From Candidatus Babeliales bacterium (lineage in GTDB: Bacteria > Babelota > Babeliae > Babelales > JANWKD01), in assembly GCA_963762115.1 (NCBI GenBank), contig CAVXJH010000006.1:192001-256000 (forward strand): 64,000 nucleotides of DNA. Direction: 5' to 3'. The translations under genes were made by a program, and so were the position numbers. The first letter of the stretch is position 1. Each line of letters begins with the position of its first letter. Under the pieces are notes generated by a model. The model was not told the origin of the DNA and did no database searches. It worked only from the letters and a program-made list of their open reading frames with translations. Below are positions 3,295 to 20,829 of the stretch, in pieces.

Positions 3295-4218
3295 ATGAAA
3301 AAGTTATTGTTATTTTTGTTGCTTAATTTAGTGACATGTGTTTCGGCAATGCAACTATTGAGACAGTGCATTTCACAGGTTGATGGAAAAAAAGTAGCAA
3401 TGACATCTTTGTCTGTAGGGTTAACGTGCCTTCATTATGTTTTGGCATATAATCCTTTGGGATTTATGATTGTTGAAATATGTCAGCCTGTCGATGAATC
3501 AAAAAAAGTTACTCCTGCGGTAGAAAACTTTGTAAAAGAAGAACTTACAAAGTGTGGTTATACCGCTTTCGATAGATTGAAAATAATTAAAAGTTTTGCT
3601 TTTTGCACAAAAGCGACTCCTTCACATGATTATTTATTTTTCAATAGCATGTATGAGCCACGATTGGAAACTGTCTTAAAAGGATCATGGTATAATCGTT
3701 TCTTAGATCGTATTGGCCCATATTTTATTAAGGATATGCAATCGAAACAAGAATATAAAAATACTGTTGCGGGTATAATTCAACATGAAGGTAGTCACCT
3801 TATTAATAAAGATTCTCAAAGATATGTTATAGCCCAGTTGGCAACCGTAGGTGCTCTTGAAATTTTTTCATTTTTTTTGAAAAAAAGAATGAGACCAATT
3901 AATAATTTCTGGATTAAGCAAAGTATGAAAATACCAACCGGAATGGTAAAATTTTCCCTTAATCTTGCAGGTTGTATGGCATTTCATCGTTATACAGAAC
4001 AAGAAGCTGATGATAGTATAAATGATGATATTGCATTGCTAACTGCGGTGAAGAAAGATTTGGAAAAAAAAATGTACTTTCCGTCTGGTGAACCATTTTA
4101 TAATTATATTTTCTTTCAAAATCATCCTTCAGATGGAGACCGTTTTGAACGGTTTACCAGACGTATAGGAAAATTAAAATTTGAAGAACAGCTAAAAAAA
4201 TCTAATAAAAAAATTTAA
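3295..4218 (+). CDS. M48-like zinc metallopeptidase, exported or membrane-bound
   Basis: HEGSH (HExxH), EQEADD (ExxAD) and NHPS...R motifs in M48 order; signal peptide ending SA-MQ. Confidence 0.65.
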   Translation: MKKLLLFLLLNLVTCVSAMQLLRQCISQVDGKKVAMTSLSVGLTCLHYVLAYNPLGFMIVEICQPVDESKKVTPAVENFVKEELTKCGYTAFDRLKIIKSFAFCTKATPSHDYLFFNSMYEPRLETVLKGSWYNRFLDRIGPYFIKDMQSKQEYKNTVAGIIQHEGSHLINKDSQRYVIAQLATVGALEIFSFFLKKRMRPINNFWIKQSMKIPTGMVKFSLNLAGCMAFHRYTEQEADDSINDDIALLTAVKKDLEKKMYFPSGEPFYNYIFFQNHPSDGDRFERFTRRIGKLKFEEQLKKSNKKI

Positions 4219-5037: not shown

Positions 5038-6813
5038 ATGAGAAATGGTATGCAAAAAAATTATCTTCGCACTATTGGATGCGGTTCAGTTGATGAAAAA
5101 ATGCTCAATACGACAATTCATCTTTCAGGTTGGGTTGATGGACGTCGTGATCATGGCGGTCTTATTTTTATTGATTTGCGTGATCGTAGCGGTTTAATGC
5201 AACTTGTTTTTAACCCTGTATTTTCAGCCCAAGCACATAAAAAAGCGCATGAATTGCGTTCAGAATTTGTTATTTCTGTAACGGGTACCGTTGTTGCACG
5301 AAGTGCTGAAACGGTGAATGAAGAGTTGCCTACGGGCAGATGGGAATTGCAAGTAACTGAATTAATGGTGTTAAATACCTCAAAAGCTTTACCTTTTTCT
5401 CTTGATGCTGATGATATTGATGAAGAATTGCGTTTAAAGTATCGTTATCTTGATTTGCGTCGTCCTGCTATGCAGCGACGTCTTGCTTTGCGCAATGATA
5501 TTATTTTTGCTATGCGTTATTTTTTGCAACATAACGGTTTTTATGAAATTGAAACACCAATTTTAACGAAAAATACTCCTGAAGGTGCGCGAGAATTTAT
5601 CGTTCCTTCACGGCTGCACCAAGGCAGTTTTTATGCATTACCGCAATCACCACAACTTTATAAACAACTTTTGATGGCAAGTGGTTTTGAGCGTTATTTC
5701 CAAGTTGCGCGTTGTTTCAGAGATGAAGATTTACGAGCAGATCGTCAGCCTGAGTTTACGCAGCTTGACATAGAAATGTCGTTTGTAAAAGAAAATGATA
5801 TTATTGGTCTTATTGAAAATTTATTTCAATTTTTATTCAAAAAGATTTTTGATGTTGAGTTGACGTTACCATTGCCTCGCATGAACTATGATGAGGCTTT
5901 TGCTTTATATGGTTCTGATAAACCTGATTTGCGTTTTGATTTAAAAATTGTAGATTTTACCTCTGTTTTTCAAAACACAGAACTAAAATTTTTGCGTGCT
6001 GTGCTTGATAAAGGCGGTAAAATTGGCGGGTTGCAGGTTAAGAGTAAAAACTTTACGCGTTCTGAATTAGATGCCTATGTTGAATGGGCTCGTAAAGCGG
6101 GTTCCTCTGGTTTATTGTGGGTTCGTGTTGGTGAAAATAACACACTCGAAGCACCTGTTGCTAAATTTTTCCCACCTGATTTTTTTAATCAGTTGAAAAC
6201 AATATGTCCTTCACTTGAACAAGGTGACACCTTATTCCTGCTTGCAGGTCAATATGATGAAGCATGGGTTCATATTGGCAGATTGCGCCTTGAATTAGCG
6301 CGTGATTTGGGAATTATTCCTGTTGGAAAGCTACATTTATCATGGGTTACTGATTTCCCTCTTTTTGAATATGATAAAGAATCGAAACAATGGAATTCCA
6401 TGCATCATCCCTTTACTTCTCCGCAAGAAGGTTGGGAAAAACTTGAGCCTGGTCAAATGAAAGCACGTGCTTACGATATCATATTAAATGGCGTTGAACT
6501 TGGCGGTGGATCAATTCGTATTTTTAATAGTGAAGTTCAAAATAAAGTTTTCCAATTGCTTGGTCTTGATGAAAAAGCAATGCATGATAAATTTGGCTTT
6601 TTATTAGAAGCACAAGAATATGGTTTCCCACCGCATGGCGGCATTGCTTTAGGACTTGATCGTTTGCTTATGTTATTAACAAATGCTACCTCAATTCGTG
6701 AAGTTATTGCGTTCCCTAAAACGGCACGTGGTTATGATCCTATGATGCAATCGCCAACCGGTGTTGATGATAAGCAGCTTAAAGAATATGGTTTGCAGAA
6801 GATCAAGAAATAA
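5038..6813 (+). CDS. aspS: Aspartate-tRNA ligase (start may be 5050)
   Basis: RRDHGGLIFIDLRD, ALPQSPQLYKQLLM, CFRDEDLRADRQPEFTQLD and PPHGGIALGLDR motifs. Confidence 0.98.
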   Translation: MRNGMQKNYLRTIGCGSVDEKMLNTTIHLSGWVDGRRDHGGLIFIDLRDRSGLMQLVFNPVFSAQAHKKAHELRSEFVISVTGTVVARSAETVNEELPTGRWELQVTELMVLNTSKALPFSLDADDIDEELRLKYRYLDLRRPAMQRRLALRNDIIFAMRYFLQHNGFYEIETPILTKNTPEGAREFIVPSRLHQGSFYALPQSPQLYKQLLMASGFERYFQVARCFRDEDLRADRQPEFTQLDIEMSFVKENDIIGLIENLFQFLFKKIFDVELTLPLPRMNYDEAFALYGSDKPDLRFDLKIVDFTSVFQNTELKFLRAVLDKGGKIGGLQVKSKNFTRSELDAYVEWARKAGSSGLLWVRVGENNTLEAPVAKFFPPDFFNQLKTICPSLEQGDTLFLLAGQYDEAWVHIGRLRLELARDLGIIPVGKLHLSWVTDFPLFEYDKESKQWNSMHHPFTSPQEGWEKLEPGQMKARAYDIILNGVELGGGSIRIFNSEVQNKVFQLLGLDEKAMHDKFGFLLEAQEYGFPPHGGIALGLDRLLMLLTNATSIREVIAFPKTARGYDPMMQSPTGVDDKQLKEYGLQKIKK

Positions 6814-6831
6814 TTTTGAGAAATATGCAAA

Positions 6832-8196
6832 CTATTTTTTTAAATGTTCATTAAGTAATTCTTGTATTTCAGGATAAAAGCTTGCCCTCTGAAGAGCGTC
6901 TTTTGTTATTTTAGCGCCTTTGGCTAATAACAGTTTTACCATTTCAGAATTATTTTTTAGTATTGCAAGACTTAATGCATCGATACCCTTATGATCTTGA
7001 ACATTTGGATCACCACCAAATTTGAGAAATTTTTTCACTTCTTCTAAAGAATTTTGTTCAATGATATACGGTAATATAAAACTTCCGTTTTTGTCTGGAT
7101 CATTAGGATTAGCACCAGCCTTGATTAAATATTTTATTGCTTTTGGACTATATAATGCTGCATATAATAATGCAGTACCACCAACTTTATTTTCGATATT
7201 AATATTAGCACCAGCACCAATCAGAGATTTTATTGCTTTTTGATTATTTTTGATTACTGCATACATTAATGCAGTTCTGCCTTTATTGTCTTGTGCATCG
7301 ATATTTTTTAATATTGCATCATTTTGTAGAAGAATTTCCACAGAATCGGGATTGCTTTCTGCTGCAAACATTAATGGAGTTTTACCTTCTTTATCTTTAC
7401 TATTAACTAATTTTTCAGAATCAAATAATAATTTTTTTGAATCAGAATCAATAAAGGGTTGTATGAGAGATGGATTAAATTTAGCGGCAAACATGAGTGG
7501 ATTTTGGCGATATTTATTAGTTTGATGCATATAAGCACCTTGCTTTAAAAACTTTTTAGCCAGTTTTGGCATATAGGCAATGGCTAAAGTAAAGGCAGAC
7601 CGAGCTGTAGTATTAAAATTACTTATTTCGTTTCTTATCTCGGATGAATTTTGTTTCAAAATTTTAAAGATACTTTTGGCAAGTTTTTCATCTTCGTGTT
7701 CAATTGCATTTTGTAAAGGAGTAATGCCGAAAATATCTGGTGAAGTAACATCAAGATTTTTGCCTTCTTTTTCTATTAAATAAAGGGCTGCATTGAGGAA
7801 ACCTTTTTCAATAAGGGCATTAAGAACGGTTCTTCCTCTTCGATCTTTTAGATTTGGATTAACTCCTAATGTTAAAAGATTTTCAACTTCTTGTGCAGAT
7901 TTTGCATTATGAAGTCTTGTTTGATCGAATGGTAGTTTTTTTTGGGCTTCAGCTTTTATCTCTTGCCTTACTTCTTCTGCCGGAATTGATTCTAAAAGTT
8001 CAGGTACATTTTCAAGCTCGGGTATTACTTCAATAAATTTTTGTTTAGCAATTTCTTTTAATGTTTTGATTGGTATTATTTTTTTTTCTTCTAACTTTTG
8101 CTTTTTAGCGGGAGATTCTTTTTTTTCTTCCATAGAAAAAAGTTCAAAAGATATAAAAAATAAGGGTAACGTGATATAGAAAATATTTTTTTTCAT
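6832..8196 (-). CDS. Exported ankyrin-repeat protein with NLS-like and BC-box-like N-terminal motifs
   Basis: Signal peptide, PAKKQKLE, KTLKEIAKQKF...IPAEEVRQEI, then multiple GxTPLMxAA...GAxxN repeats. Confidence 0.9.
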   Translation of the reverse strand: MKKNIFYITLPLFFISFELFSMEEKKESPAKKQKLEEKKIIPIKTLKEIAKQKFIEVIPELENVPELLESIPAEEVRQEIKAEAQKKLPFDQTRLHNAKSAQEVENLLTLGVNPNLKDRRGRTVLNALIEKGFLNAALYLIEKEGKNLDVTSPDIFGITPLQNAIEHEDEKLAKSIFKILKQNSSEIRNEISNFNTTARSAFTLAIAYMPKLAKKFLKQGAYMHQTNKYRQNPLMFAAKFNPSLIQPFIDSDSKKLLFDSEKLVNSKDKEGKTPLMFAAESNPDSVEILLQNDAILKNIDAQDNKGRTALMYAVIKNNQKAIKSLIGAGANINIENKVGGTALLYAALYSPKAIKYLIKAGANPNDPDKNGSFILPYIIEQNSLEEVKKFLKFGGDPNVQDHKGIDALSLAILKNNSEMVKLLLAKGAKITKDALQRASFYPEIQELLNEHLKK

Positions 8197-8225
8197 TGTT
8201 AATCCTTTTTAAGTTTTTTAATTAA

Positions 8226-9920
8226 TCAATCAAATGCTGATGCAAAGTTCTGAGCAATTAAATTGAATATTTCGACATTGCCTTGAGCTTTTTCAATTGA
8301 TTGATCAGTAATTTCTGCTCCACCTTCTAATAATGCCTTTATTATTTCTGGTTCATTTTTTTCTATAGCAATCTCTAAGGGAGTTTCGCTGCTTATTTTA
8401 TCTCTGAAGTTAGGATTTGCGCCAACTTTTAACATGTTTTTAATTATCTCTACATTATTTTCTCTAACAGCTTTTATCAAATAACTTCCCAAGAAAGGGA
8501 TTATCAATTCTTTGATTTCACGGTTACGGGCAGCAAGTGCAAGTGTTTTTTCAGTTATTTCTGCTCCATGTTCTAATAAAACTTTTACTATATTAGATTG
8601 ATCCTGGGCTATTGCCATAGTTAATGCATCAAGACCTTCATTATTTTTGCCATTAGGATCAGCACCAAATTCAAGAAGTTTTTTTACTGCTTCTGATGAA
8701 CCTTGAGATACAGCAGCTAATAAAGGAGTTTCGCCATTTGTACCTTTTTCATTAGGGTTGACACCAGCTTTAATGAGTGGTTCTATTGTATTAGGATTAA
8801 ATCGAGCAGCATGATATAACGCTGTTTCATTATCAAGATCTTTAATGTTAATATTGGCACCAGCATCAATGAGTAATTGTACTGCTTCAGTATTATTTTG
8901 TGCTGCTAACATCAATGCAGTTTCCCCCTTTTTGTTTTTAGCATGGATGTTAGCTCTAGCTTTAATAAGGGTTGGAATGAGGGATGGATTATATGTTGCT
9001 GCAAACATCAAGGGCGCTTCACCATATTGATTTTTTTCATTTACTGAAGCTCCTAAGCTAATAAAGTTATCAATAAGTTCAGGCATATAACGAATTGCTA
9101 GGGTAAATGCTGACCATTCAATTTTATTAGTGGTATTTAATGCAGCAGGTAATTTGATATTTTTTGCTTCTTGAGGAAGAAAAAGATAATAGCCTTTTGC
9201 CTCATCTTTCTTTGCTTTTAATTTTTTTTGTTCTTGTAGAATTTCAATGATAAGATTAACAAGATCTAGATCTTGTTTTTGTATTGCACGTTGTAAAGGT
9301 GTGACGGCATATTCATCAGGAGAACTTACATCAAGTCCATTTCCTTGTGTTGCTAGTAAATATGATTTTATTAAATGATGAATATTTTCTTCTGTTAGCT
9401 TCTCTAAAGGAATTGTCTGATAAGGTATTGCTGTAAGAGCAATTGATACTAAATGAAATGCTGCATTAAGATGGCCTTTATCAATAAGTGCATTTAAAGC
9501 AGTTTTGCCGCTTCGATCTTTTAAATTTGGGTCAACGCCAAGCGTCAAAAGATTTTCAACTTCTTGTTCAGACGTTGCATTATGAAGTCTGGTTTCTTCA
9601 AAGCACAATTTTTTTTGAGCTTCAGCTTTTATCGCTTGCCTTACTTCTTCTGCCGGAATTGATTCTAAAAGTTCTGGTACATTTTCAAGCTCGGGTATTA
9701 CTTCAATAAATTTTTGTTTAGCAATTTCTTTTAATGTTTTAATCTGAGGTGGTTTTGTTGATACCCTTCTTCGTTTAATGGGAGGTTGTTGAGGTTGTTT
9801 TTGTAGTAGGCATCCCTTTTCTTCTTCTTCAGGTTGTTTCCGTTTTCGAGACTCTTCCATTGAACAAAGTTCAAAAGATATAAAAAAGAGAAATAAAAGA
9901 ATAAAAAATAGTTTTTTCAT
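8226..9920 (-). CDS. Exported ankyrin-repeat protein, paralog of 6832-8196
   Basis: Signal peptide, RKRK and PPIKRRRV, a near-identical BC-box-like segment, and many ankyrin repeats. Confidence 0.9.
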   Translation of the reverse strand: MKKLFFILLFLFFISFELCSMEESRKRKQPEEEEKGCLLQKQPQQPPIKRRRVSTKPPQIKTLKEIAKQKFIEVIPELENVPELLESIPAEEVRQAIKAEAQKKLCFEETRLHNATSEQEVENLLTLGVDPNLKDRSGKTALNALIDKGHLNAAFHLVSIALTAIPYQTIPLEKLTEENIHHLIKSYLLATQGNGLDVSSPDEYAVTPLQRAIQKQDLDLVNLIIEILQEQKKLKAKKDEAKGYYLFLPQEAKNIKLPAALNTTNKIEWSAFTLAIRYMPELIDNFISLGASVNEKNQYGEAPLMFAATYNPSLIPTLIKARANIHAKNKKGETALMLAAQNNTEAVQLLIDAGANINIKDLDNETALYHAARFNPNTIEPLIKAGVNPNEKGTNGETPLLAAVSQGSSEAVKKLLEFGADPNGKNNEGLDALTMAIAQDQSNIVKVLLEHGAEITEKTLALAARNREIKELIIPFLGSYLIKAVRENNVEIIKNMLKVGANPNFRDKISSETPLEIAIEKNEPEIIKALLEGGAEITDQSIEKAQGNVEIFNLIAQNFASAFD

Positions 9921-10018
9921 GATGCGATACCTATTAAATTAATGATTTATTAAATTTTTTCTTTATAAATAATCTATAGGTATAATTTTAACAAATACGC
10001 TATTCAAATTGCAATAAT
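9866..10018. repeat. About 150-bp direct repeat (signal-peptide coding start plus upstream region), also at about 11091-11243
   Basis: aaagttcaaaagatataaaaaagag...ctataggtataattttaacaaat...tattcaaattgcaataat occurs in both places with few mismatches. Confidence 0.9.
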
Positions 10019-10048
10019 TAACTTTTTTATAATTAAATTATATGCGCC

Positions 10049-10140
10049 GTACTTTAATTTTTTCTATTTTCTTAACATATACTCTGTTATAATCTTTGCG
10101 TTATCATAGCTTTTTTAGAGAAAAAACAAGTCTGATTAAA
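10049..10140. repeat. Copy of the eno upstream spacer (about 11669-11760)
   Basis: tagcttttttagagaaaaaacaagt[c/a]tgattaaa and flanking similarity are shared. Confidence 0.85.
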
Positions 10141-10179
10141 CAACTTAAAGAATATGGTTTGCAGAAGATAAAGAAGTAA
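10137..10179 (+). repeat. Duplicated 3' end of aspS (KQLKEYGLQKIKK*)
   Basis: 39 of 43 nt identical to 6771-6813; all 4 differences are synonymous third-codon changes. Confidence 0.92.
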
Positions 10180-10182
10180 AAA

Positions 10183-11145
10183 TTACTTCTTTCTTTGTAT
10201 GTATTCATTAACTATTTCCCATAGTTCGGGATATTTATCTTTTTCGCGCATTACTCTATTTCTTGATCCAAGTGGTATTATAGCTCCTGCATTTATTAAG
10301 AGTTTTAGAGCGTTAGCATTGTTATTATTTATTGCTATTGCTGCAGCCTGAGAAGTTGTAATACTATTAATTTTTTTTGAATAAGGACATGTCCAGTATG
10401 AAGTTGTATTGGGATTAGCACCTAACTTAATTAAAAGTTCAACTAATTCTGGTAAATGTTGTATTGCTAAAGTAAGAGCAGATTCTTTTTGATTATTAAT
10501 ATTATTTATTGAATCAAGTTTATTTTGCTTTTGTAAAATAGATATAATTCTTTTTGCAAGTTCTAAATTTTTATGTAAAATTGCTCTTTGCAAAGGAGTA
10601 AAAACATCATTATCTGGTGTACTAACGTCTAAATTTAATAGACCACCTTTTTCATTTATTAAGTTAATTAAATGAAGAGCTTCATTATCATGTTCATTAT
10701 ATATAAGTGAATTTATAGCTGTTTTACCAGATCGATCTTTAATATTTGGATCAAAGCCTAAAGTAAGTGCAGTTTCAATTTCTTTCTCAGTTTGAGCATT
10801 ATGTAATCTTGTTGGAGCAAAAGGAAGTTCTTGTTGTGCTGCTTCTCTTATTTCATGTTTTAGTTCTTCTTCTGGAATTGATTCAATAAATTCTGATAAT
10901 TCTTCTATTTCAGGAGCTATCTCTGCAATCTTTTCAGCAGCAATTTGACGTAATGAAGGAACAGTTGTTCTTCTTCGTTTAATTCGAAGTTGTTGGCAGA
11001 CATTCTCTTGTTCTTGCTCTTTTTCTTTTTCAGGCTCTTTTCGCTTTCGAGATTCTTTTTGGTATTCTTCTTGCTGGCCTTCCATTGCACAAAGTTCAAA
11101 AGATATAAAAAAGAGGGATAAAAGAATAAAAAATAGTTTTTTCAT
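10183..11145 (-). CDS. Exported ankyrin-repeat protein, third paralog of the cluster
   Basis: Same signal peptide, RKRK/KRRR, VPSLRQIAAEKIA, TRLHNA and ankyrin repeats. Confidence 0.88.
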   Translation of the reverse strand: MKKLFFILLSLFFISFELCAMEGQQEEYQKESRKRKEPEKEKEQEQENVCQQLRIKRRRTTVPSLRQIAAEKIAEIAPEIEELSEFIESIPEEELKHEIREAAQQELPFAPTRLHNAQTEKEIETALTLGFDPNIKDRSGKTAINSLIYNEHDNEALHLINLINEKGGLLNLDVSTPDNDVFTPLQRAILHKNLELAKRIISILQKQNKLDSINNINNQKESALTLAIQHLPELVELLIKLGANPNTTSYWTCPYSKKINSITTSQAAAIAINNNNANALKLLINAGAIIPLGSRNRVMREKDKYPELWEIVNEYIQRKK

Positions 11146-11258
11146 GATACGATACCTATTAAATTAATGATTGATTTAATTTTTTCTTTATAAATAATCT
11201 ATAGGTATAATTTTAACAAATTTATTATTCAAATTGCAATAATATATTCTTTTTAGAA

Positions 11259-11648
11259 TTATTGAGAAGATTTAGATAAGGTTTTTAGTTTTTTCAAATA
11301 ATGCAAATGTTTGTTGTAATATTCATTATTTTGATTTGTTAATTGATGATACTCTTGAGCAAGGCATGAATTTAAAATGATCATGGCTGGAAGAGTAAGA
11401 GAATTATATTCTTCATGTTCTAAGTCATTCCTTCTTTTCTGATTGAGTTGTGTATATTCGTTGAATTTTTTAATGTTGCTTTTCGATAACGTATAGCATG
11501 ATAAAAATTGTTCATTATTATTGTTAATTTCTTGAAGGGTAGCAATAAGAGCTCGTTGAATAGATGTATTTTGATTTTGAATATGTATCTGTTCCATTGC
11601 GGTGCATAGCATAAAGCAAAAAAACACAATAAACATATTTCTTTTCAT
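11259..11648 (-). CDS. Hypothetical exported protein
   Basis: AAGGGA RBS; signal peptide ending TA-ME. Confidence 0.65.
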   Translation of the reverse strand: MKRNMFIVFFCFMLCTAMEQIHIQNQNTSIQRALIATLQEINNNNEQFLSCYTLSKSNIKKFNEYTQLNQKRRNDLEHEEYNSLTLPAMIILNSCLAQEYHQLTNQNNEYYNKHLHYLKKLKTLSKSSQ

Positions 11649-11793
11649 TGTTTTATCCCTTAAGTAGTGTACGTTAGTTTTTTCTAGTTGCTTAGCATAT
11701 ATTCTTTTATAATTTTTACATTATCTTAGCTTTTTTAGAGAAAAAACAAGTATGATTAAATAAAGTAAATGTGATGATATAAAGGGGTTCTTA

Positions 11794-13047
11794 ATGAAAA
11801 TAATAAAAATACAGGGAAGAGAAATTTTTGATTCTCGAGGATTTCCAACACTCGAATGTGAACTCACGTTAGATGACGGTTGTTCATTTATAGCATCAGT
11901 TCCTTCAGGAGCTTCAACGGGAATTCATGAAGCAATTGAATTGCGTGATAATGATGCGCAGCGATTATTTGGTAAGGGAGTATTAAAGTCGATTGATATT
12001 CTTGAAAATGTTATAGCTCCTGCCTTGATTGGTAATGCCCCACAAGTTTGTAGCATAGATCGATTTATGATTGATCTTGATGGAACGCCAAACAAAGCAC
12101 GATTGGGTGCAAACACCATTCTATCAGCAAGTATTGCGGTTCTAAAAGCGCAGGCGCATCTTGAACAGGTTGAGCTCTATGAATGTATCGCACACCTTTA
12201 TAATGCTGAAGCGGTTATGCTGCCTATTCCTCTTTTTAATATGATCAATGGTGGTGCACATGCAGATAATAATTTGCGTATACAAGAATTTATGGTTGCT
12301 CCTCTGGGTGCTAAAAATTTTAGGCATGCATTAGAACAAGCTTCGCTCGTATTCCATCATTTAAAACGATTACTTAAAGAAGCTGGCAAAACTGTTTCTG
12401 TTGGTGATGAGGGCGGATTTGCACCTCATTTTGAACATGAAGTAGAAGCGATCGATTTTCTCTTGAAAGCAATTGATGAGGTTGGTGATCAAGATATGTT
12501 TAGAATTGCCCTTGATGTTGCAGCATCAGAATTTTATAATGCACAATCTCGCACTTATTTGTGGCATAACAAAGAATATTCATCAACTGATATGATCGCT
12601 TTTTATCAAGAATTGCTTGCGTATTATCCAATTTATTCAATTGAAGATGGTCTTGCACAAGATGATTGGGATGGTTGGATGACATTGAATCGTACACTTG
12701 GTGAAACAACACAAATTGTTGGTGATGACCTTTTTGTTACTTCAAGTTCGCGCATAATTCACGGTGTAAAAACACATGCAGCAAATGCAGCAATAATCAA
12801 ACCCAATCAAGTTGGCACGGTTACTGAAACATTGCAAGCAATTCAAACGTGCCAAGAATATGGTATGGGCACGATTATTTCGCATCGTTCAGGAGAAACT
12901 GAAGATTCGTTTATTGCTGATCTTGCTGTTGGCACGAGTGCAGGTCAAATCAAAGCAGGAAGTTGCTCACGTGGTGAACGAATGGCAAAATATAATCGTC
13001 TTTTGCGCATTGAAGATCAACTCATTTATGGATTACTTGAGGGCTAA
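11794..13047 (+). CDS. eno: Enolase
   Basis: DSRGFPT, VPSGASTG, GDEGGFAP, SHRSGETED and GQIKAG...RGERMAKYN motifs. Confidence 0.98.
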   Translation: MKIIKIQGREIFDSRGFPTLECELTLDDGCSFIASVPSGASTGIHEAIELRDNDAQRLFGKGVLKSIDILENVIAPALIGNAPQVCSIDRFMIDLDGTPNKARLGANTILSASIAVLKAQAHLEQVELYECIAHLYNAEAVMLPIPLFNMINGGAHADNNLRIQEFMVAPLGAKNFRHALEQASLVFHHLKRLLKEAGKTVSVGDEGGFAPHFEHEVEAIDFLLKAIDEVGDQDMFRIALDVAASEFYNAQSRTYLWHNKEYSSTDMIAFYQELLAYYPIYSIEDGLAQDDWDGWMTLNRTLGETTQIVGDDLFVTSSSRIIHGVKTHAANAAIIKPNQVGTVTETLQAIQTCQEYGMGTIISHRSGETEDSFIADLAVGTSAGQIKAGSCSRGERMAKYNRLLRIEDQLIYGLLEG

Positions 13048-15789
13048 CAACGGATTATTTGAATCCTGCATAAGTTGTTTTAATCGTTCAGCACGATATT
13101 GCATAGCATTATTTACTTGCTGCATCCCATTTTTTTCGGGTATCGCGTTTTCATATTCTTTATAATCATGTTGTATTCCCGATTTAATAACTTTTTCTTG
13201 CGCATTTTCATTCTCAGGAATAGCATTTTCATATTCTGTGAAATCATGTTTAATGTTAGCTTGATTGAATTCTTGCTCTGGAACGGCAATTTCATCTTTG
13301 CATGTTGCAGCTTCTTCACAATCATAGGTGACAGGAATAGTCTTATTTGTTGCATTACATGTTGGTTTTATGATGCTGCAATAGCCAGGATCATTACACA
13401 TATCACGTTTATCACTGCAACGTGAGCCACGCGCTTTACTCTCAGAGTGAACGTTCCATTCATTTTTCATTTCATGATTAACAAAATTGCCAATAACGGT
13501 ATCTGCATAGGTGAGATTTGGTTTAAAGAACCAACGAGTGACAGGATCGCGTAATGTTTCAAAAGCAAGTTCTTCAGTAAGTTCATTTTTTGCATAACAT
13601 AATTTGTCTTTTGTATAGCTGCCAATGCCGCCTTTCACCTTTGGATACATGATGCGTGGTGAAATAAAAATCATCAGATTATTTTTTGTTTTATTATCTC
13701 CTTTTCGTTTGAAGAACCAACCAAAGATAGGAATTCTACTCAATAATGGTGTTTCATTTTCACTGATTGAATCATTGAGGCTAATTAAACCACCTAACGC
13801 TAAAACTTCTCCGTTACCCACATTGGCGTTTGTTTGTACTAAACGTGTTCTTCTATTATTATTTTCGGCAAGAAATTGTTCAACTTTTACAATAATATTT
13901 AAATTAATATTATTATTATCAACACTGATACGTGGCAAAATATCAATTGAGGTAGCCGCAACAACATCATCTTTTTGGACTTTAATACCACCAGTTTGAC
14001 TTACTGCATCACCATCAACCAATCGTTGTTCGGCGATGGTGATTGAAGCTTGTCGATTATCTGCAGTCGTTATGAATGGTTGTGCAAGTAAGGTGCTGTT
14101 GGTATAAGCATCGAGAACCTGCCAAACACTCCAAATGCCGCTGTTATCAGGATCATTGAATGAGATTACCATTGATCCAACACCGCCTTCGGTGGCAAGA
14201 TTGAAGTTGCCGGTTTCGCCTTCTTGAATGCGCAATAAGTTTGCCATAAGTGCATGATTTGGATAGAACGGAATACTACCATTTGCAGTGTCTATACTGC
14301 CATTACCAGGACGAAGCACCGGAGAATCGATCATTGCTGTTTGAAAATCAACATTATCTGACCCTACGTTAAATAAACTACCTTTATTTCTCATTTGGCT
14401 GCCAAGGATTTTATCATTATTGAGCGTTAAGTCGACAACAAGAACTTCAATGGCAACTTGTGGTTGCGGTTTATCAAGGTCTTCAATGAGTGCCTTAATA
14501 CGAATCCAATCTTGTTTGCGCGCAGCAACAATAAGACGATTACCCGCTTGTTCAATACCTTGCGTTTCACCACTCACCGATTCACTACCATGAACTGCAG
14601 AAGGCGTCTCGCTTGGCGTGATTTGTGTGGCTTCGCTTTTTTTCGGTGCTTTTATGCTAAGCGTTGATTTTTCTGCAACAATGATGACATCTTGGAAATC
14701 TCGCTTTGGTCCTACTGTTTGACCTTGTGTTTGTGCTTGTCCTGTTACTGATTTGCTGATTAAATCTTGTAATATTCCTTGGAAATCTTCCGCATTAAGA
14801 TATTGCAAATCATAAATATGTAAGATTGATTCACCTGTTTCTAAGGGATGATCAATATATTTTATAATAAAATCTTTTACTGTTCTGATTGCCTTTATTG
14901 ATCCCATCACGACGATGGCATTTGTGCGTCCGAGTGCTAAGACTTTGGTGTTAGGGGGAAAGTAAGAAACTTGTTTGGTTGTTTCTCGGGTAGGGGTTGC
15001 ACTTGGTGTTGCTACAAATAATTTATTTTTAAAAAGATCTTCAACAAATGCGGCTTCTGTATAAAAAAGTGGAACAACTTCAATAGCATCGGGAATACCC
15101 TCTAAATCAAGTTCTTTGATAATAATCATTGCTGCACGAATATTGTCGGCTTTATCAGTTATAATAAGTGCATTTGTTTTATCATCACGTTTTATATCAG
15201 CCATAGGAGAAAGCATTGATTTTAAGATCGCTTCAATATTGGTACGTGTTGAATCATTGCTTAATTTTAGATTAGCAAGATAAAAAATTGTTTGTATGAC
15301 AGTGCCATCATTTGGCAAATCTTCAATTTGTGGATTTTTATAAACAGTAAGGGGTTCACGTTTAATATCATTGCTTATTTTAGTGAGTATCAGAAGATCA
15401 TCGTGGGGAATCCAAGAATAACCAAGAAATTCGAGAATTTTATTAACTTCTCGCCATGCTTGATTAAGAGTGACTTTTTTGGGTAGTTGATACGTTAACT
15501 TGGTGGTTAATGCATTGGGACTTTGTGGTTGGGGTAAAATAATATTAACTTTTTTTTCAGCTGCATATTCATTAATGACATCAGAAAGGGGAATATCTTT
15601 ATAGTTAAAAGAATATAGTTTTTTGGGTGCTTCTTGTGGAGCATCAGCTTTTGATTCGCTCGTATTTGGTTGATTTAATTTTTGTTCAAGAACTTTTTTT
15701 ACTGCCGTTAGCTCTTCAGTTGCTTTAGCATATATCGCACTATGTGCTAGCAGAATAAATAATGCTTGATAGATTATTTTAGTTTTCAT
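13033..15789 (-). CDS. gspD: Type II secretion secretin GspD (second copy) with Cys-rich C-terminal extension
   Basis: N-domain repeats (TNALII, NRLIV), LDKPQPQVAIEVLVV, and LGGLI...PLLSRIPIFGWFF...LMIFISPRI. Confidence 0.9.
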   Translation of the reverse strand: MKTKIIYQALFILLAHSAIYAKATEELTAVKKVLEQKLNQPNTSESKADAPQEAPKKLYSFNYKDIPLSDVINEYAAEKKVNIILPQPQSPNALTTKLTYQLPKKVTLNQAWREVNKILEFLGYSWIPHDDLLILTKISNDIKREPLTVYKNPQIEDLPNDGTVIQTIFYLANLKLSNDSTRTNIEAILKSMLSPMADIKRDDKTNALIITDKADNIRAAMIIIKELDLEGIPDAIEVVPLFYTEAAFVEDLFKNKLFVATPSATPTRETTKQVSYFPPNTKVLALGRTNAIVVMGSIKAIRTVKDFIIKYIDHPLETGESILHIYDLQYLNAEDFQGILQDLISKSVTGQAQTQGQTVGPKRDFQDVIIVAEKSTLSIKAPKKSEATQITPSETPSAVHGSESVSGETQGIEQAGNRLIVAARKQDWIRIKALIEDLDKPQPQVAIEVLVVDLTLNNDKILGSQMRNKGSLFNVGSDNVDFQTAMIDSPVLRPGNGSIDTANGSIPFYPNHALMANLLRIQEGETGNFNLATEGGVGSMVISFNDPDNSGIWSVWQVLDAYTNSTLLAQPFITTADNRQASITIAEQRLVDGDAVSQTGGIKVQKDDVVAATSIDILPRISVDNNNINLNIIVKVEQFLAENNNRRTRLVQTNANVGNGEVLALGGLISLNDSISENETPLLSRIPIFGWFFKRKGDNKTKNNLMIFISPRIMYPKVKGGIGSYTKDKLCYAKNELTEELAFETLRDPVTRWFFKPNLTYADTVIGNFVNHEMKNEWNVHSESKARGSRCSDKRDMCNDPGYCSIIKPTCNATNKTIPVTYDCEEAATCKDEIAVPEQEFNQANIKHDFTEYENAIPENENAQEKVIKSGIQHDYKEYENAIPEKNGMQQVNNAMQYRAERLKQLMQDSNNPLLALK

Positions 15790-15800
15790 TATTTAATTCC

Positions 15801-16379
15801 TTAGCTCTCAATTTCTTTTGGTGTTTCTACTTTTGGTTCAAGGGTCGCAATAGTTAGTTTTACATTGATAGCATTTGGATTTGTTGTTGAGCGTTCAACT
15901 TCAACATCCTTTGTATAAATTCTTTCTTCAAGTTCAATAGCATGGAGCAATTCGCTCATTTTTTTTGTATTCATATTGGTAAGATTAGCATACAATGTCC
16001 ACTCAGTATAATATCCATCCAGAACTTCTTGTGACATAGTTTCAACGTCTTGTGTTTTATTACTCATGAGTCCTAATTTTTGGAGTAGTTGATCGAAATA
16101 TTGAGAAATTTTGAAGTCTTTCTCTTTTGCTAATATCGCATCAACACCTACTTGTAGTTTTTTGACCAAATCATAACGACTGACCAATTCGCGTACGGCA
16201 ACGCGATGTTTATTCACTATAGCTATGCGAGAACGTAATGAGGAAATATTTCTATAATAAAGAAATACAATGAGTCCCATAAGAGCAATCAAAACACCAA
16301 AAGCAATAAGAATGTAATTTCTAAATTCTTTTTGATCCCAGTTATCGATATAGTTCTTTAACGAAGTTAAGATATTCAT
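15801..16379 (-). CDS. gspM: GspM/PilO-like inner-membrane platform protein
   Basis: Single N-terminal TM segment, coiled coil and ferredoxin-like C-terminus; lies between the gspL-like gene and gspD. Confidence 0.65.
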   Translation of the reverse strand: MNILTSLKNYIDNWDQKEFRNYILIAFGVLIALMGLIVFLYYRNISSLRSRIAIVNKHRVAVRELVSRYDLVKKLQVGVDAILAKEKDFKISQYFDQLLQKLGLMSNKTQDVETMSQEVLDGYYTEWTLYANLTNMNTKKMSELLHAIELEERIYTKDVEVERSTTNPNAINVKLTIATLEPKVETPKEIES

Positions 16380-18013
16380 TGAGTAACACCATTTTTCTTT
16401 AAAGGCATTTGCAAGGTGAATTTTGTAGTTTGTAAACTTGGTATAGTGAGGAATAAGTTAGTATTTTTTAACTCTCTTTCAAGTATTTTGAGTGCGTCAA
16501 AATCTTTTACTTCACCTTCAAGAGTAAGACTACTTGGTTCTTGTTGACTAATGATTAATTTTGTTATTTTAAGCCCAAGAGCATTTCTATCAATCGCAGC
16601 ACTGAGTTTTTCTAAATACTTTAAGAACGATACTCTTGTTTGCTGTGAGAATGCAAACCAAATAGCTTCTTCTTCGGTAACTTTTTCTTCTGCTTCGCGT
16701 ATGCCAACAGCTACTGATTTTGCATTAGTAAGCCCAAGTTTTTTTAAAGTTGAAAGTACTTCTTGCTCGGATGCTGCTACTTCTTTTTTTACCGTTTTGG
16801 TACGGAGAAAATTATTAACAAGCAGACCGATAAAAATACAACCAATAAGGAAAAAGCTCGTAATAATTTGTTTATTAAAAAGAGAATTTTCTGATGGTGC
16901 GAATTCTTGCCTGAGTAGATTGAACTCTTGCATGCGAGGTGTTATGAGTGCCGTACTTAAGCTTACTATGGTAGATTGCGGTATTTTTTTGCCATTTTTA
17001 ACAGAAAATCCCGGAACGTCCAAAAGAGCATTTATAGCGAATAATTCAGTTGAAATACCCAATTGTTCATTAAAAAATGAAACCATGTTGGGTAATTCTG
17101 CACCATCACCTAATAATAAAATGTTATCAAGTTTTTTATGGTTTGGATTTTGTGCAATAAATGAATCTAAAGTAAATCGAATTTCATTAAGATATGAGGT
17201 TACAACAGTATGAATAGCCTTACTATAAGGATCTTCAGTGTTTTTTTCCAAACCAAATCGAATAATTTTTTCTAACGTATCTTGTGGTGTTGCCGACAAA
17301 GATTGAGCAATTGTTTTTGCCCAGTTGGTGATTCCTTTTGGCAAGGTGCGAAGTAAGGTGAGTTGTCCATCAATGACGTAGGCAATGCTGGTAAAGTTAT
17401 AGCCGAGGTCAATAATTGCTGTTGCGCCTTTTGATGATGCATAACGAGGAATTATTGTGTAGAGGCCATATAAATCAAAAAGATCAATGGTAATAGTGTT
17501 TGGCGTAACTCCTGCAGCTTGAAAATAACTTACATGCTCAATAATATGTTGTTTTTGCAGAGCACACACAAGAACTTCAGAAGTATGTTGTTCAGGATTA
17601 CTTTTTGTAATAATAAAATCAATGATTGCATCTGAGGTAGGAAATGGCAAATATGGTTCAATTTCATAATTAAGAACCATGCTAATTTTATCACTCTCTA
17701 AAAAAGGTAGTGTTAACCCTTTAAAAATAGCATTTGAGCTTGCAAGTGAAGTGCGTATTAAATCATAACGATCAGCAGTTGCAAGAATTTTTTTTATGGC
17801 CTGTGCTACACGATCAGCAAAGGGAATAGACATATCTGTTGTTAATGATTCAGTAAAAAAACGTTCTAAAGTAACTTTATTTCCGTGCATCAGTACTTGT
17901 GTAGCATGTACCGATGATTTGTTAATAGAAAATCCTATTATTCTTTGTGAAATAAGATAATTGGTACCGAATTTTTCAGGAATAAAAATATTTTTTACAA
18001 GATTAGCTATCAT
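16376..18013 (-). CDS. gspL: GspL / PilM-PilN-like fused assembly protein
   Basis: Actin-like N-domain (IIDLG, ILLLGDGA), FNLL motif before a TM segment, and periplasmic domain with LTLEG. Confidence 0.75.
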   Translation of the reverse strand: MIANLVKNIFIPEKFGTNYLISQRIIGFSINKSSVHATQVLMHGNKVTLERFFTESLTTDMSIPFADRVAQAIKKILATADRYDLIRTSLASSNAIFKGLTLPFLESDKISMVLNYEIEPYLPFPTSDAIIDFIITKSNPEQHTSEVLVCALQKQHIIEHVSYFQAAGVTPNTITIDLFDLYGLYTIIPRYASSKGATAIIDLGYNFTSIAYVIDGQLTLLRTLPKGITNWAKTIAQSLSATPQDTLEKIIRFGLEKNTEDPYSKAIHTVVTSYLNEIRFTLDSFIAQNPNHKKLDNILLLGDGAELPNMVSFFNEQLGISTELFAINALLDVPGFSVKNGKKIPQSTIVSLSTALITPRMQEFNLLRQEFAPSENSLFNKQIITSFFLIGCIFIGLLVNNFLRTKTVKKEVAASEQEVLSTLKKLGLTNAKSVAVGIREAEEKVTEEEAIWFAFSQQTRVSFLKYLEKLSAAIDRNALGLKITKLIISQQEPSSLTLEGEVKDFDALKILERELKNTNLFLTIPSLQTTKFTLQMPLKKNGVTQ

Positions 18014-20829
18014 GTTCTCACCTCGTTATCTTTAGCGTTATCGATGGGTAAGAACTCCATAATCGATTTTCGTTTTTTTTGTTGAACAGAAGGCCGTTCT
18101 CTTTGTTCATTTTGCGTTATCGCGACCGCATGGGATGACACTGCTGCAGCTTCTTCATCAGCTTCAAGTGCTTTTACGGCACGTGGTTTTTCTTGTTGCA
18201 CAAATTCAATATCTTCTTGTTCAGGTTTTTTTTGTGCTTGTTGTGCTTCTAATTTTTCTTTTTTTGCTTCTTGTTCAACGGCTAATGCATTTACATCTTC
18301 TTCATCTTCTAAATCTTCTTGTTCAAGAGGTTCTTCTAATGGGGCTTGTTCTTCATCTTCTAAGAGTGCGTTTAATTTGTCTATCGAAGACACACAATTT
18401 GATTTAGCCAGACAACGTGGCTCTCGAGCGCAGGTATATTTATCTTTGCACGTTTGACCAGTGCAACGACAACGATAAAGATCACTATCAAAAACATCAT
18501 TTATGCGACAATCAATAACCTTTCCTGGTTCCAAGCAAGGGCTTTGTGGATGCAGGAAGAATTCAACTTTTTCTGTATCTTCATCGGGTCTATCTTTGAA
18601 GAACCAACGATGAATTGGGTCACGTTGTTCATAAGGTTGTCTCATATCACGTAAAGCATTTTTAGAATAATCGGCTTTTTTCACGGTGTAATTGCCAATA
18701 CCGCCTTGAGCCATTGGTTGTACGATTTGTGGTGAAATAAAGACTAATAAATTACTCTTATTTTTTGCTTTATTTTTATTTTTAAAAAACCAACCAAGAA
18801 TGGGAACTTTGCCAAGCAAAGGAACTTCAAAAGTTGCATCACTATTTTGATTTTGTAATAAGCCGCCGATGGCAAGAATTTCTTTATTAGCAACATTTGC
18901 ACTTGTTTTAATTGTTTTAGTATTTCTTGTTGCACTTGTTGCTAGAGCATCAGTAAAGGTATCAACGTCAATTCTAATTTCAAGATTAATTATGCCATCA
19001 TTATTAATTTGTGGGGTAATTTCCACCGTTAAATTTGCTGATAAATCAGCTTGTGTTGCGACCGTAGCATTACTTTGAACCGTACCCGTTGATACACGTC
19101 TCGTTTCACCAAGCGAAACACGTGCGGTAAACTTGTTGGTTGTTGTTAAAAATGGGTATGAGACAAGACTTGAATAGGTATAGGTTTCAAGCATTTTAAA
19201 GAGGGCCCAAACACCACCAGCAATGTTGCCGCCAATAGAAAGTAATGTTGTGCCGGGGTTTTGACCTTGTGCTAATGAAATTAAATCTCCCATAAGTCCA
19301 CCACTTGCATTTGTTATTATTCCTGATGTGCCGCCGCCAGTGATGCCAGAATTTTGAAATTCAACATTTCTTGTTCCTAAGCTGCCACCAAAACCGGGAG
19401 TTTTTGTTCGTATTTGTGATCCTAATGATTTAAGTTTGGTGGTATTAACGTTAACGACCAATACTTCAATAGCAATTTGTGGCTGTTTTACATCGAGTTG
19501 TTCAATGATAGTGCGAACCTTTAAATAATCTTCTTTTTCAGCACGAATAAGCAATCTGTTGCCGGAGGGCTCAGAAATGAATTGCATTTGTCTAAAAAAT
19601 TTATTGCCATCGCGAACGCCGCCATATATTGCAGCTTTTGAGTTAGGAGCAAATGCGGTGACTTGATTGAGAATTTGTGCAATATTATCCGAATTGGCAT
19701 ATTGCAAATCATAAACATAGAGAGGTGAATATGGTTGTTGTAGTTCTGTATCAACATAATTAAGAATAAAATCTTCAACTTTTTCTATGCTTGCGCGGGT
19801 ACCAAGAATAATAAGTGCATTGGTGCGCGGTTCGGCAATAAGTTTTGTATCTTCAGGAAAATAAGCTGTTGTTGATTGTTTTTTTGCGCCGAATAATCGT
19901 GCTGCTATGCCAGTTTTTTGCTCTTCTCGCGCAACAAGATTTTCATAAAGTGATACAACATCTTCGGCATTAGCATGTTTTAATTTTAACACTGAAAGTG
20001 CTTCGGGCATACTAACATTATCAAGTTCGCTGAGTATTGCCATTATTGAACGAATGTTTGATGATTTATCTGAAAAAATTAAAGCATTTAAGTCTTCAAA
20101 AGGTTGTACGATACCACTTTTGCTTTTGAAATCTTGCGCTATGGTGTTAAGTGTTGCCAATTGACTGTTTTCAACAAAATACACAAAACGAATTTTAGTA
20201 TCGTTGTCGGGTAAATCGCGCCACTTAACCCCAATAAAAACGGGAAGTGGTGCTTGATTGGCAACATCAGCAGGTAAAACAGTATAAGAAATAGGATGAC
20301 CATCAAGATATTGATTTGGCACGAGGGTTACACCAAAAAGATCGAGAAAACTTAAAAACAAATCCCAAACTTGACGTTTAGTCATTGATTTTTGTGTTTT
20401 ATAGGTAATAAGATTGCCGGCAACTTTACCTATGGCAGGGGGGGTAAAAGCATCGCCCGTTAAAAAATTAATTTTGAATATTTTTTTTATCCAATCTAAA
20501 AGATTGAGAATATCGGTTTTATCAAGATTAACTTCAATCGTATCATTGATGTTATGTATTGCTTCTCGTGGCATAAGTGAATTTAAATCTTTTTGAAGAT
20601 GAGCTTCATCATGATCATCAATCGTGCCATCTTTTAATTTTTGTACTTCTTTTTCTTCTTTTTTTGCTATTCGTTTTTTTTGTTTTCTTTTTTTTTGACT
20701 CTCAAGAGAATCATGATCAACTTTTTGTTTATTAGTTTCAATTGCACCATGCATGGTAAAGAATGAATGCCACATGATACTATGAAAATAAAGAGTGATT
20801 AAACAAATGAGTAAGGATCTTTTTTTCAT
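18010..20829 (-). CDS. gspD: Type II secretion secretin GspD with Cys-rich and acidic C-terminal extension
   Basis: LKHANAED, EPRTNALIILG, LDVKQPQIAIEVLVV, and IGGLL...VPLLGKVPILGWFF...LLVFISPQIV. Confidence 0.92.
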   Translation of the reverse strand: MKKRSLLICLITLYFHSIMWHSFFTMHGAIETNKQKVDHDSLESQKKRKQKKRIAKKEEKEVQKLKDGTIDDHDEAHLQKDLNSLMPREAIHNINDTIEVNLDKTDILNLLDWIKKIFKINFLTGDAFTPPAIGKVAGNLITYKTQKSMTKRQVWDLFLSFLDLFGVTLVPNQYLDGHPISYTVLPADVANQAPLPVFIGVKWRDLPDNDTKIRFVYFVENSQLATLNTIAQDFKSKSGIVQPFEDLNALIFSDKSSNIRSIMAILSELDNVSMPEALSVLKLKHANAEDVVSLYENLVAREEQKTGIAARLFGAKKQSTTAYFPEDTKLIAEPRTNALIILGTRASIEKVEDFILNYVDTELQQPYSPLYVYDLQYANSDNIAQILNQVTAFAPNSKAAIYGGVRDGNKFFRQMQFISEPSGNRLLIRAEKEDYLKVRTIIEQLDVKQPQIAIEVLVVNVNTTKLKSLGSQIRTKTPGFGGSLGTRNVEFQNSGITGGGTSGIITNASGGLMGDLISLAQGQNPGTTLLSIGGNIAGGVWALFKMLETYTYSSLVSYPFLTTTNKFTARVSLGETRRVSTGTVQSNATVATQADLSANLTVEITPQINNDGIINLEIRIDVDTFTDALATSATRNTKTIKTSANVANKEILAIGGLLQNQNSDATFEVPLLGKVPILGWFFKNKNKAKNKSNLLVFISPQIVQPMAQGGIGNYTVKKADYSKNALRDMRQPYEQRDPIHRWFFKDRPDEDTEKVEFFLHPQSPCLEPGKVIDCRINDVFDSDLYRCRCTGQTCKDKYTCAREPRCLAKSNCVSSIDKLNALLEDEEQAPLEEPLEQEDLEDEEDVNALAVEQEAKKEKLEAQQAQKKPEQEDIEFVQQEKPRAVKALEADEEAAAVSSHAVAITQNEQRERPSVQQKKRKSIMEFLPIDNAKDNEVRT

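Follow-up and report, generated by a model that had tools for sequence, protein, structure and literature searches.

Allele-like orphan gene tails in a Babeliales genome and the probable addition of a second aspS–eno allele beside the resident one

The DNA analyzed in this study (the window) is a stretch of 64,000 nucleotides from contig CAVXJH010000006.1 of a Candidatus Babeliales bacterium, positions 192,001 to 256,000. The genome to which it belongs, a 1.53-Mb assembly in 7 contigs, is referred to below as G000. We studied the interval between aspS and eno, the genes for aspartyl-tRNA synthetase and enolase. This interval contains three ankyrin-repeat genes and, in its middle, a short copy of the 3' end of aspS that belongs to no complete gene. 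We call such a piece an orphan tail.

Structure of the aspS–eno interval and its joint

The order from aspS to eno is aspS, ankyrin gene 1, ankyrin gene 2, a copy of the spacer upstream of eno, a copy of the aspS end, ankyrin gene 3, a gene of 129 aa, the spacer, and eno (Table 1). The same order had been given in an earlier note made from the sequence alone, and it was reproduced by our comparisons of open reading frames (ORFs), Pfam families and repeats. The two spacer copies (10049-10149 and 11669-11769) showed 85% identity (E 3e-25), and the two aspS ends (10137-10179 and 6771-6813) matched at 39 of 43 positions (E 5e-9), the longest exact repeat between the two tails being 26 nt. No further copy of either repeat was found in the rest of the 1.53-Mb assembly. 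The insert, 6778-10143, is 3,366 nt long and comprises ankyrin genes 1 and 2 between an aspS end and part of the eno spacer. As the earlier note had said of integrases, no tyrosine or serine recombinase match was found on this contig; two tyrosine recombinases and two full-length serine recombinases are encoded elsewhere in G000.

Table 1. Features of the aspS–eno interval (window positions)
Feature	Positions	Strand
aspS, aspartyl-tRNA synthetase, 591 aa, intact; presumed homologous anchor	5038-6813	+
Present 3' end of aspS (36-nt repeat, copy 1); presumably arrived with the cassette	6778-6813	+
Ankyrin-repeat gene 1, 454 aa, signal-peptide-like start; unit 1	6832-8196	-
Ankyrin-repeat gene 2, 564 aa; unit 1	8226-9920	-
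Leader of gene 2 and upstream region, 92% identical to 11079-11253	9854-10028	-
Eno-upstream spacer, second version, differing from the resident spacer at 13 of 95 nt; forms the right end of the inserted unit	10049-10143	+
Imperfect 13-nt patch of spacer/aspS similarity containing the joint between 10143 and 10144	10137-10149	+
Orphan aspS 3' end, 36 nt (11 codons and stop); presumably the former resident end	10144-10179	+
Ankyrin-repeat gene 3, 320 aa, unit 2; adjoins aspS in strain X2	10183-11145	-
Gene of 129 aa, no Pfam family; 30% identical to a small gene at the same place in G001	11259-11648	-
Resident eno-upstream spacer	11669-11793	+
eno, enolase, 417 aa	11794-13047	+

The position of the joint was determined by comparing it base by base with both parents. 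The letters at 10140 and 10143, at which the two aspS ends differ, are those of the spacer (11760 and 11763). In addition, a related strain, X2, carries C at 11761, as is found at 10141, meaning that the junction equals the X2 spacer through 10143. That is, the spacer-derived part ends at 10143 and the aspS-derived part starts at 10144. This result bears on two details of the earlier note. The note had counted four synonymous differences between the aspS tails. All four are third-position differences and are synonymous as read, but only two of them (ATC/ATA and AAA/AAG, in 36 nt) lie between the tails. The argument that the note built on four differences at this locus was therefore weak, and we dropped it, because the other two letters belong to the eno spacer. 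The microhomology tgat(t)aa, which had been placed at the joint, is out of register, as it requires a gap, and lies 7 nt to the left of the joint.

There is no exact overlap at the joint between the window's own alleles, a value within the 0-10 nt of microhomology that is accepted for homology-facilitated illegitimate recombination (HFIR). In the 13-nt patch around the joint, spacer and aspS agree at 8 positions, or at 9 when the X2 letter is used. Since an agreement of at least 9/13 was reached by only 114 of 32,544 pairings of the spacer with the aspS end, the patch probably guided the joining, as far as a single event can tell. Comparison of the joint sequence with viral contigs gave 0 matches.

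The runs X1-X4 were checked for cover of the joint; X1 is near-identical to the window, and X2 is about 95-97% identical to it. An X2 contig of 1,262 nt (depth 15.4) runs from aspS (5902-6777) directly into 10144-10527 and thus skips the 3,366-nt unit, with 47 differences from the window over the first part and 15 over the second. It has the letter of the orphan tail at the last codon as well as the flank of the orphan, and it has T at 10170, unlike both window copies. Two further X2 differences in 10137-10143, deduced from the counts (17 vs 15), are presumably aspS letters. Where the two spacers differ (13 positions), X2 has the resident letter in 11 cases among the positions listed. These matches indicate that unit 2 is the unit shared with close kin. 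The resident tail, gene 3 and spacer, all matching X2, were kept in the window, and no deletion of resident DNA of the HFIR type was found.

The earlier note had proposed that aspS–eno intervals be compared across related genomes. When this was done, the single-copy state was seen in X2, and L031, whose aspS is 93% identical, had an interval of 368 nt with no ankyrin genes, that is, an empty slot. Among 80 genome loci, both genes were present in 46, with an interval of 14-7,220 nt, and that of the sister species G001 was 7.2 kb long with four members of the ankyrin family. The gene content between these fixed conserved genes is variable, as in minimal mobile elements. Neither the 14 hand-picked relatives nor the 78 loci with an aspS end (80 loci examined) had a further copy of the aspS tail or of the eno spacer.

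Orphan tails of other genes and their codon positions

For the uniform scan, single-copy ORFs of at least 100 aa were used, and copies of at least 28 nt at 80% identity were collected outside ORFs and within 15 kb; copies holding an ORF of at least 100 aa were dropped. The scan covered G000 and G001 (a single 1.34-Mb contig) whole, 260 kb of G004 and 800 kb of G022, while G003 and G020 were not included. In G000 there were 16 same-strand downstream copies of 3' ends at 13 genes among 1,288 ORFs, together with 1 upstream copy, which came from a repeat-like ORF, and no inverted copy. G001 had 7 downstream 3'-end copies among 1,147 ORFs, and G022, which belongs to another family, had 3 copies among 677 ORFs. 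The single copy in G004 (C1:63547-65274) is that of a gene that we take to be serine-recombinase-like at its start, and may be an ordinary att site instead of an orphan-tail footprint. The E. coli K-12 control gave 0 copies among 414 ORFs in 0.5 Mb (p 0.026 vs G000); the difference from the pooled Babeliales set was not clear (p 0.056), and no naturally competent control was included.

Two additional G000 cases, at Maf and a PASTA gene, were found in other passes and stand outside these counts. A separate pass for copies of at least 200 nt in G000 and G001 gave only secreted-type paralogues besides a 210-nt G001 case. Among 76 loci around aspS, three orphan 3' ends were present, two of them from enolase-like genes. 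These two belong to distant relatives (L151:19333-19404 and L171:7160-7215), and 4/4 and 3/3 of their differences are synonymous.

The anchor families include YdjM, Maf, PASTA, GpsA, TamB, MurB, RodA/FtsW and a Na/H antiporter, and further anchors are presumably secA, gatB, HPF, SbcD and YicC. The joints lie 29-210 nt before the stop codon, and in 20 of 23 orphans no more than background identity is left immediately beyond the stop. No shared joint motif was found in these 23 (top 5-mer in 8, null mean 8.3). By a crude rule, all 19 of the G000 cargo genes that were scored have a signal-peptide-like start, compared with 187/607 core and 318/462 accessory genes. No recombinase was found in the G000 inserts scanned and no restriction-modification (RM) family among the other G000 cargo genes scanned; the aspS insert carries its two ankyrin genes only. 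The polarity test used 16 anchors that have an orthologue in the sister genome. At 10 of them the next genes of the sister were matched solely by genes after the orphan, although some of these distal matches are core genes and carry little weight.

We then compared the tails by codon position. Synonymous differences made up 62 of 111 in G000 and 43 of 64 in G001. With 26 orphans pooled and the first 10 nt trimmed, 119 of 190 differences were synonymous. The expected share is 27% under neutral decay and 43% under duplication with the gene also drifting, the drift expectation being calculated with a kappa of 4 (about 3.5 was observed at fourfold sites). The excess over 43% gave p 2.5e-8, and the worst leave-one-out value was 2.4e-5. 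When the two longest orphans were left out, p was 0.0016, or 0.017 at a kappa of 8. Fifteen orphans leaned to the synonymous side and 4 were ties; the 210-nt orphan of G001 has 21 synonymous and 2 non-synonymous changes. Judged from codon positions, these results indicate that the tails differ in the manner of alleles and not of copies within one genome.

Several individual loci deserve description. At C3:561866, with a different ankyrin gene on either side, a gpsA tail directly abuts the tail of the PASTA gene. This locus (G000 C3:561773-561919, L198) is a second two-allele stack built like that at aspS, and G001 has the second gene only. A TamB-family gene is followed by three orphan tails (G000 C6:76729-80514, L200), in which 15 of 16 differences are synonymous; the first two tails share a homologous joint, meaning that joints can be inherited and restacked. 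A G001 cargo gene located before an orphan (C1:848588-849712) shares 95% identity with a gene found at an unrelated place in G000 (C5:7951-9084). As the median for orthologues is 69%, this identity points to a recent transfer between species. The cargo gene at G000 C5:33639-35114 (L199) gave a strong MavL-like ADP-ribosylhydrolase Pfam match and is 73% identical to a G001 gene.

Origin of the inserted unit

In the shared core, the identity of ankyrin gene 3 to genes 1 and 2 is 48-49%. The identity of genes 1 and 2 to the four G001 genes is 53-64% for three of them and 43-44% for the fourth. The C-terminus of gene 1 scored 119 with the first G001 gene and 75 with gene 3; neither over the whole length nor at the C-terminus is gene 3 the closest relative of gene 1. 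Gene 2 is 70% identical over the N-terminal core to a gene of G004, which belongs to another genus, and an insertion is common to both. This relative and its upstream region (74% over 792 nt) lie at a non-aspS locus (L028:7342-8872), beside an ORF that we take to be transposase-like. The non-coding flanks of the ankyrin units differ by only 8-14%. The event behind the tail repeat could hardly have produced such deep coding divergence next to flanks so similar. A 297-nt block of genes 1 and 2 is 86% identical (window 7774-8070 and 9447-9743), and genes 2 and 3 have in common the leader and upstream DNA given in Table 1. These shared blocks, together with an X2 gene 3 that has a leader of the gene-1 type, suggest shuffling through conserved leaders.

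The window's ankyrin proteins have Pfam Ank matches and a signal-peptide-like start according to a crude hydrophobicity rule, which is not a trained predictor, and on this basis they are candidate host-targeted effectors. They also carry a basic KRRR stretch and, after it, a conserved helical segment with some likeness to a BC/SOCS box (window 9720-9780 and 10900-11000). This likeness, noted for the N-terminal 'SLRQIA/TLKEIA' segment, found no support, as no such Pfam match was obtained at E up to 10, the segment had a predicted local distance difference test score of about 60 in the model, and the fold search gave ankyrin-type folds among the matches listed. Richness of Dependentiae in ankyrin and signal-peptide proteins has been described in PMC6561590, where delivery of their ankyrin proteins into host cells, and action on them, has also been proposed.

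We think, with a probability of about 0.7, that the unit 6778-10143 is a second aspS–eno allele from a related Babeliales lineage, which was added before the resident allele. The earlier note had likewise proposed two alleles stacked at aspS, added and not swapped, and its proposal is supported by X2, by the ankyrin relationships and by the genome-wide codon test. From the anatomy, the joint, the strain lacking the unit and the recurrent allelic scars, we infer the pairing and joining as follows. Donor DNA would have paired with aspS up to the stop codon, where the homology ends. The far end of the donor DNA, inside its own spacer, would then have joined the resident chromosome 36 nt before the stop at the imperfect 13-nt patch. 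The old aspS end would thereby have been left behind as the orphan tail, and the new end would have arrived with the cassette. Alternatively, the fragment may have been circularized first and have entered by one crossover; this route would give the same product, and the two cannot be separated by sequence. The orphan tail probably has no function of its own, and the 36-nt repeat would permit later loss of the unit.

The uptake of such DNA by natural transformation may be considered from gene content. ComEC was found in 40 of the 41 genomes searched, G000 has DprA and a ChlI-family match of ComM size, and MutS is present. Because ComEC and DprA are also found in most control genomes, these genes allow transformation and do not demonstrate it. 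Beside eno, window 13033-20829 contains two secretin genes and a PilM-like gene, whose matches score below the curated cut-offs of type II secretion or type IV pilus models; they are a candidate route for export or DNA uptake. On the other side, upstream of aspS, lies a weakly M48-peptidase-like gene (window 3295-4218), with no counterpart ORF there in L031 and about 12% divergence in X2. This appears to be another variable slot, and no orphan tail was detected there.

Several results weigh against the addition of a foreign allele. At the aspS locus only 2 differences are informative, which are too few for proof alone, and the test for a donor tract of higher divergence within aspS gave no significant result (p 0.06 with the 30 nt preceding the tail, 0.17 with the preceding 73 nt). 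No donor and no second stacked strain were found in the 14 relatives and 78 loci. The unit might once have been present in X2 and have been removed when the two tails crossed over. In a second X2 contig, moreover, the gene 3 body is attached to a leader of the ankyrin-1 type and to an end resembling that of ankyrin 2, meaning that the units are mosaic. No independent contig spans the joint; X1, X3 and X4 have no cover there, X3 and X4 yielding scraps only. The ankyrin tree has no resolution (0/5 inner branches supported). As for the genome-wide set, 3 of 23 orphans stay similar past the stop, and in 7 of 26 the non-synonymous differences outnumber the synonymous ones. At 4 of the 16 anchors, including aspS, a match to the sister's neighbours is seen for the proximal cargo as well or for it alone, one of these four being a mirror view of the PASTA event, and at 2 of the 16 neither side matches. 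In addition, HFIR in the laboratory usually deletes resident DNA, and ComEA was not found.

The same structure might be produced if a tandem duplication within the genome came first and foreign alleles subsequently replaced or converted one of the copies by ordinary two-sided recombination. Such a sequence of events would also yield synonymous differences, and at the aspS locus homologous flanks (tail, leader, spacer) are available on both sides of each unit; the block shared by genes 1 and 2 suggests conversion, and two of the three TamB joints are homologous, so that joints are reusable. However, for most of the scored orphans listed, the DNA preceding the joint is not found a second time downstream, meaning that the foreign allele would have had no second homologous arm. 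Moreover, the cargo on the two sides is usually unrelated, and two steps would be needed at each of many loci. Taken comprehensively, we consider this course of events unlikely. Simple tandem duplication in one genome, after which the orphan decayed neutrally and the ankyrin genes diverged fast, is very improbable, being rejected by the pooled codon test even with gene drift and largely refuted genome-wide. Although tandem arrays of secreted paralogues are common in G000, two differences in 36 nt cannot reject neutrality, and two orphans at C3:93774 (0/6 and 1/10 synonymous) look like neutral decay, the stop of homology at the stop codon in most orphans and the distance between genes 1 and 3 both speak against it.

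A site-specific recombinase acting in trans could integrate cassettes at gene ends and leave attL and attR. The geometry equals the 3'-end replacement caused by integrative elements, and recombinases of both types are encoded in the genome; even so, with 13-15 unrelated target genes, repeats ranging from 29 to 210 nt, no shared motif, no recombinase in any G000 insert scanned, and neither an integrase beside the element nor a common core site, there is hardly any probability left for this explanation. The chance that the structure is an assembly chimera of two co-occurring strains seems equally slight. The lack of a spanning independent contig, even from the near-identical X1, would fit such an artifact, but the joint is a new adjacency and not a collapsed repeat, given the short exact repeat between the tails, and the same scars occur in the single contig of G001 and in G022.

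Implications and comparison with known systems

We therefore regard the addition of an allele as the best explanation, in which the new points are that the addition is anchored in housekeeping genes, occurs genome-wide and carries an allelic signature; it is akin to HFIR and to insertion with long target duplication. A wider claim, which we put forward tentatively and consider somewhat doubtful, is that Babeliales expand their secreted repertoire by an order-wide, integrase-free addition at the 3' end of any conserved gene, and that DNA from related cells is thereby added and not swapped. If this is true, every housekeeping gene end would be a potential cassette entry point, and gene flow between intracellular parasites could be dated from the orphan tails; extended to other competent bacteria, this would make their long target duplications allele pairs and not copies. 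Allele addition as such would offer a concrete route by which intracellular parasites with small genomes gather secreted and ankyrin proteins in arrays with no need of mobile elements. It would also imply frequent DNA exchange among strains and species without known transformability. A single scar such as that at aspS is ordinary, and the value lies in the recurrence, the polarity and the statistics. The codon-position test on orphan tails is a simple means of separating allele stacking from duplication, and it is usable on the long-target-duplication class. No paper on this process in Babeliales was found in the literature searched, which covered few subscription journals.

According to PMC3240628, HFIR is characterized by one homologous end, an illegitimate joint with little or no microhomology, an insert of kb size and no integrase, and it generally deletes about as much resident DNA as is inserted. 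The aspS locus shares the last three of these four features and probably the first, as the geometry, X2 and the polarity are compatible with an anchor in aspS. In contrast, the aspS locus lost nothing, and 36 nt of the anchor were duplicated. In the E. coli study described there, 56 of 60 clones had trimmed, recircularized single-crossover products with duplications of 109-950 bp, and the aspS unit fits these products better.

Arrays of displaced effector and immunity genes of the Vibrio type VI secretion system have been attributed to HFIR (PMC5361080 and PMC9711863). There and in the orphan 3' ends of Rhs genes, as in Babeliales, the arrival of a module with an upstream anchor shifts the former 3' part further downstream, and repetition leads to arrays, which may be compared with the three TamB tails of G000. 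Unlike those systems, the Babeliales anchors are housekeeping genes at many unlinked loci, and the displaced piece is a non-functional tail of 29-210 nt followed by intact old neighbours instead of a toxin tip or immunity gene. In the minimal mobile elements of Neisseria, as described in PMC3787668, a variable cassette slot also lies between conserved genes; these cassettes are swapped by two-sided recombination, whereas aspS has two alleles in tandem and a new joint.

The geometry is also matched by the insertion with long target duplication of Furuta, Abe and Kobayashi (2010). PMC2853133 describes inserts of <20 kb with a direct repeat of >30 bp that is unique and imperfectly identical, with no other mobile element and mostly in competent species. 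At the aspS locus we found an insert of 3,366 nt, a repeat of 36 nt, no recombinase on the contig, and a relative with a single copy (X2), besides the empty slot of L031. In that system the cargo is RM genes, and here it is secreted-type proteins, so that breaks made by RM enzymes cannot explain the insertion; furthermore, the density here reaches about 10 cases per Mb in a single genome. The word 'synonymous' does not occur in the main text of that paper, and the present results show that the differences between the Babeliales repeats are allele-like.

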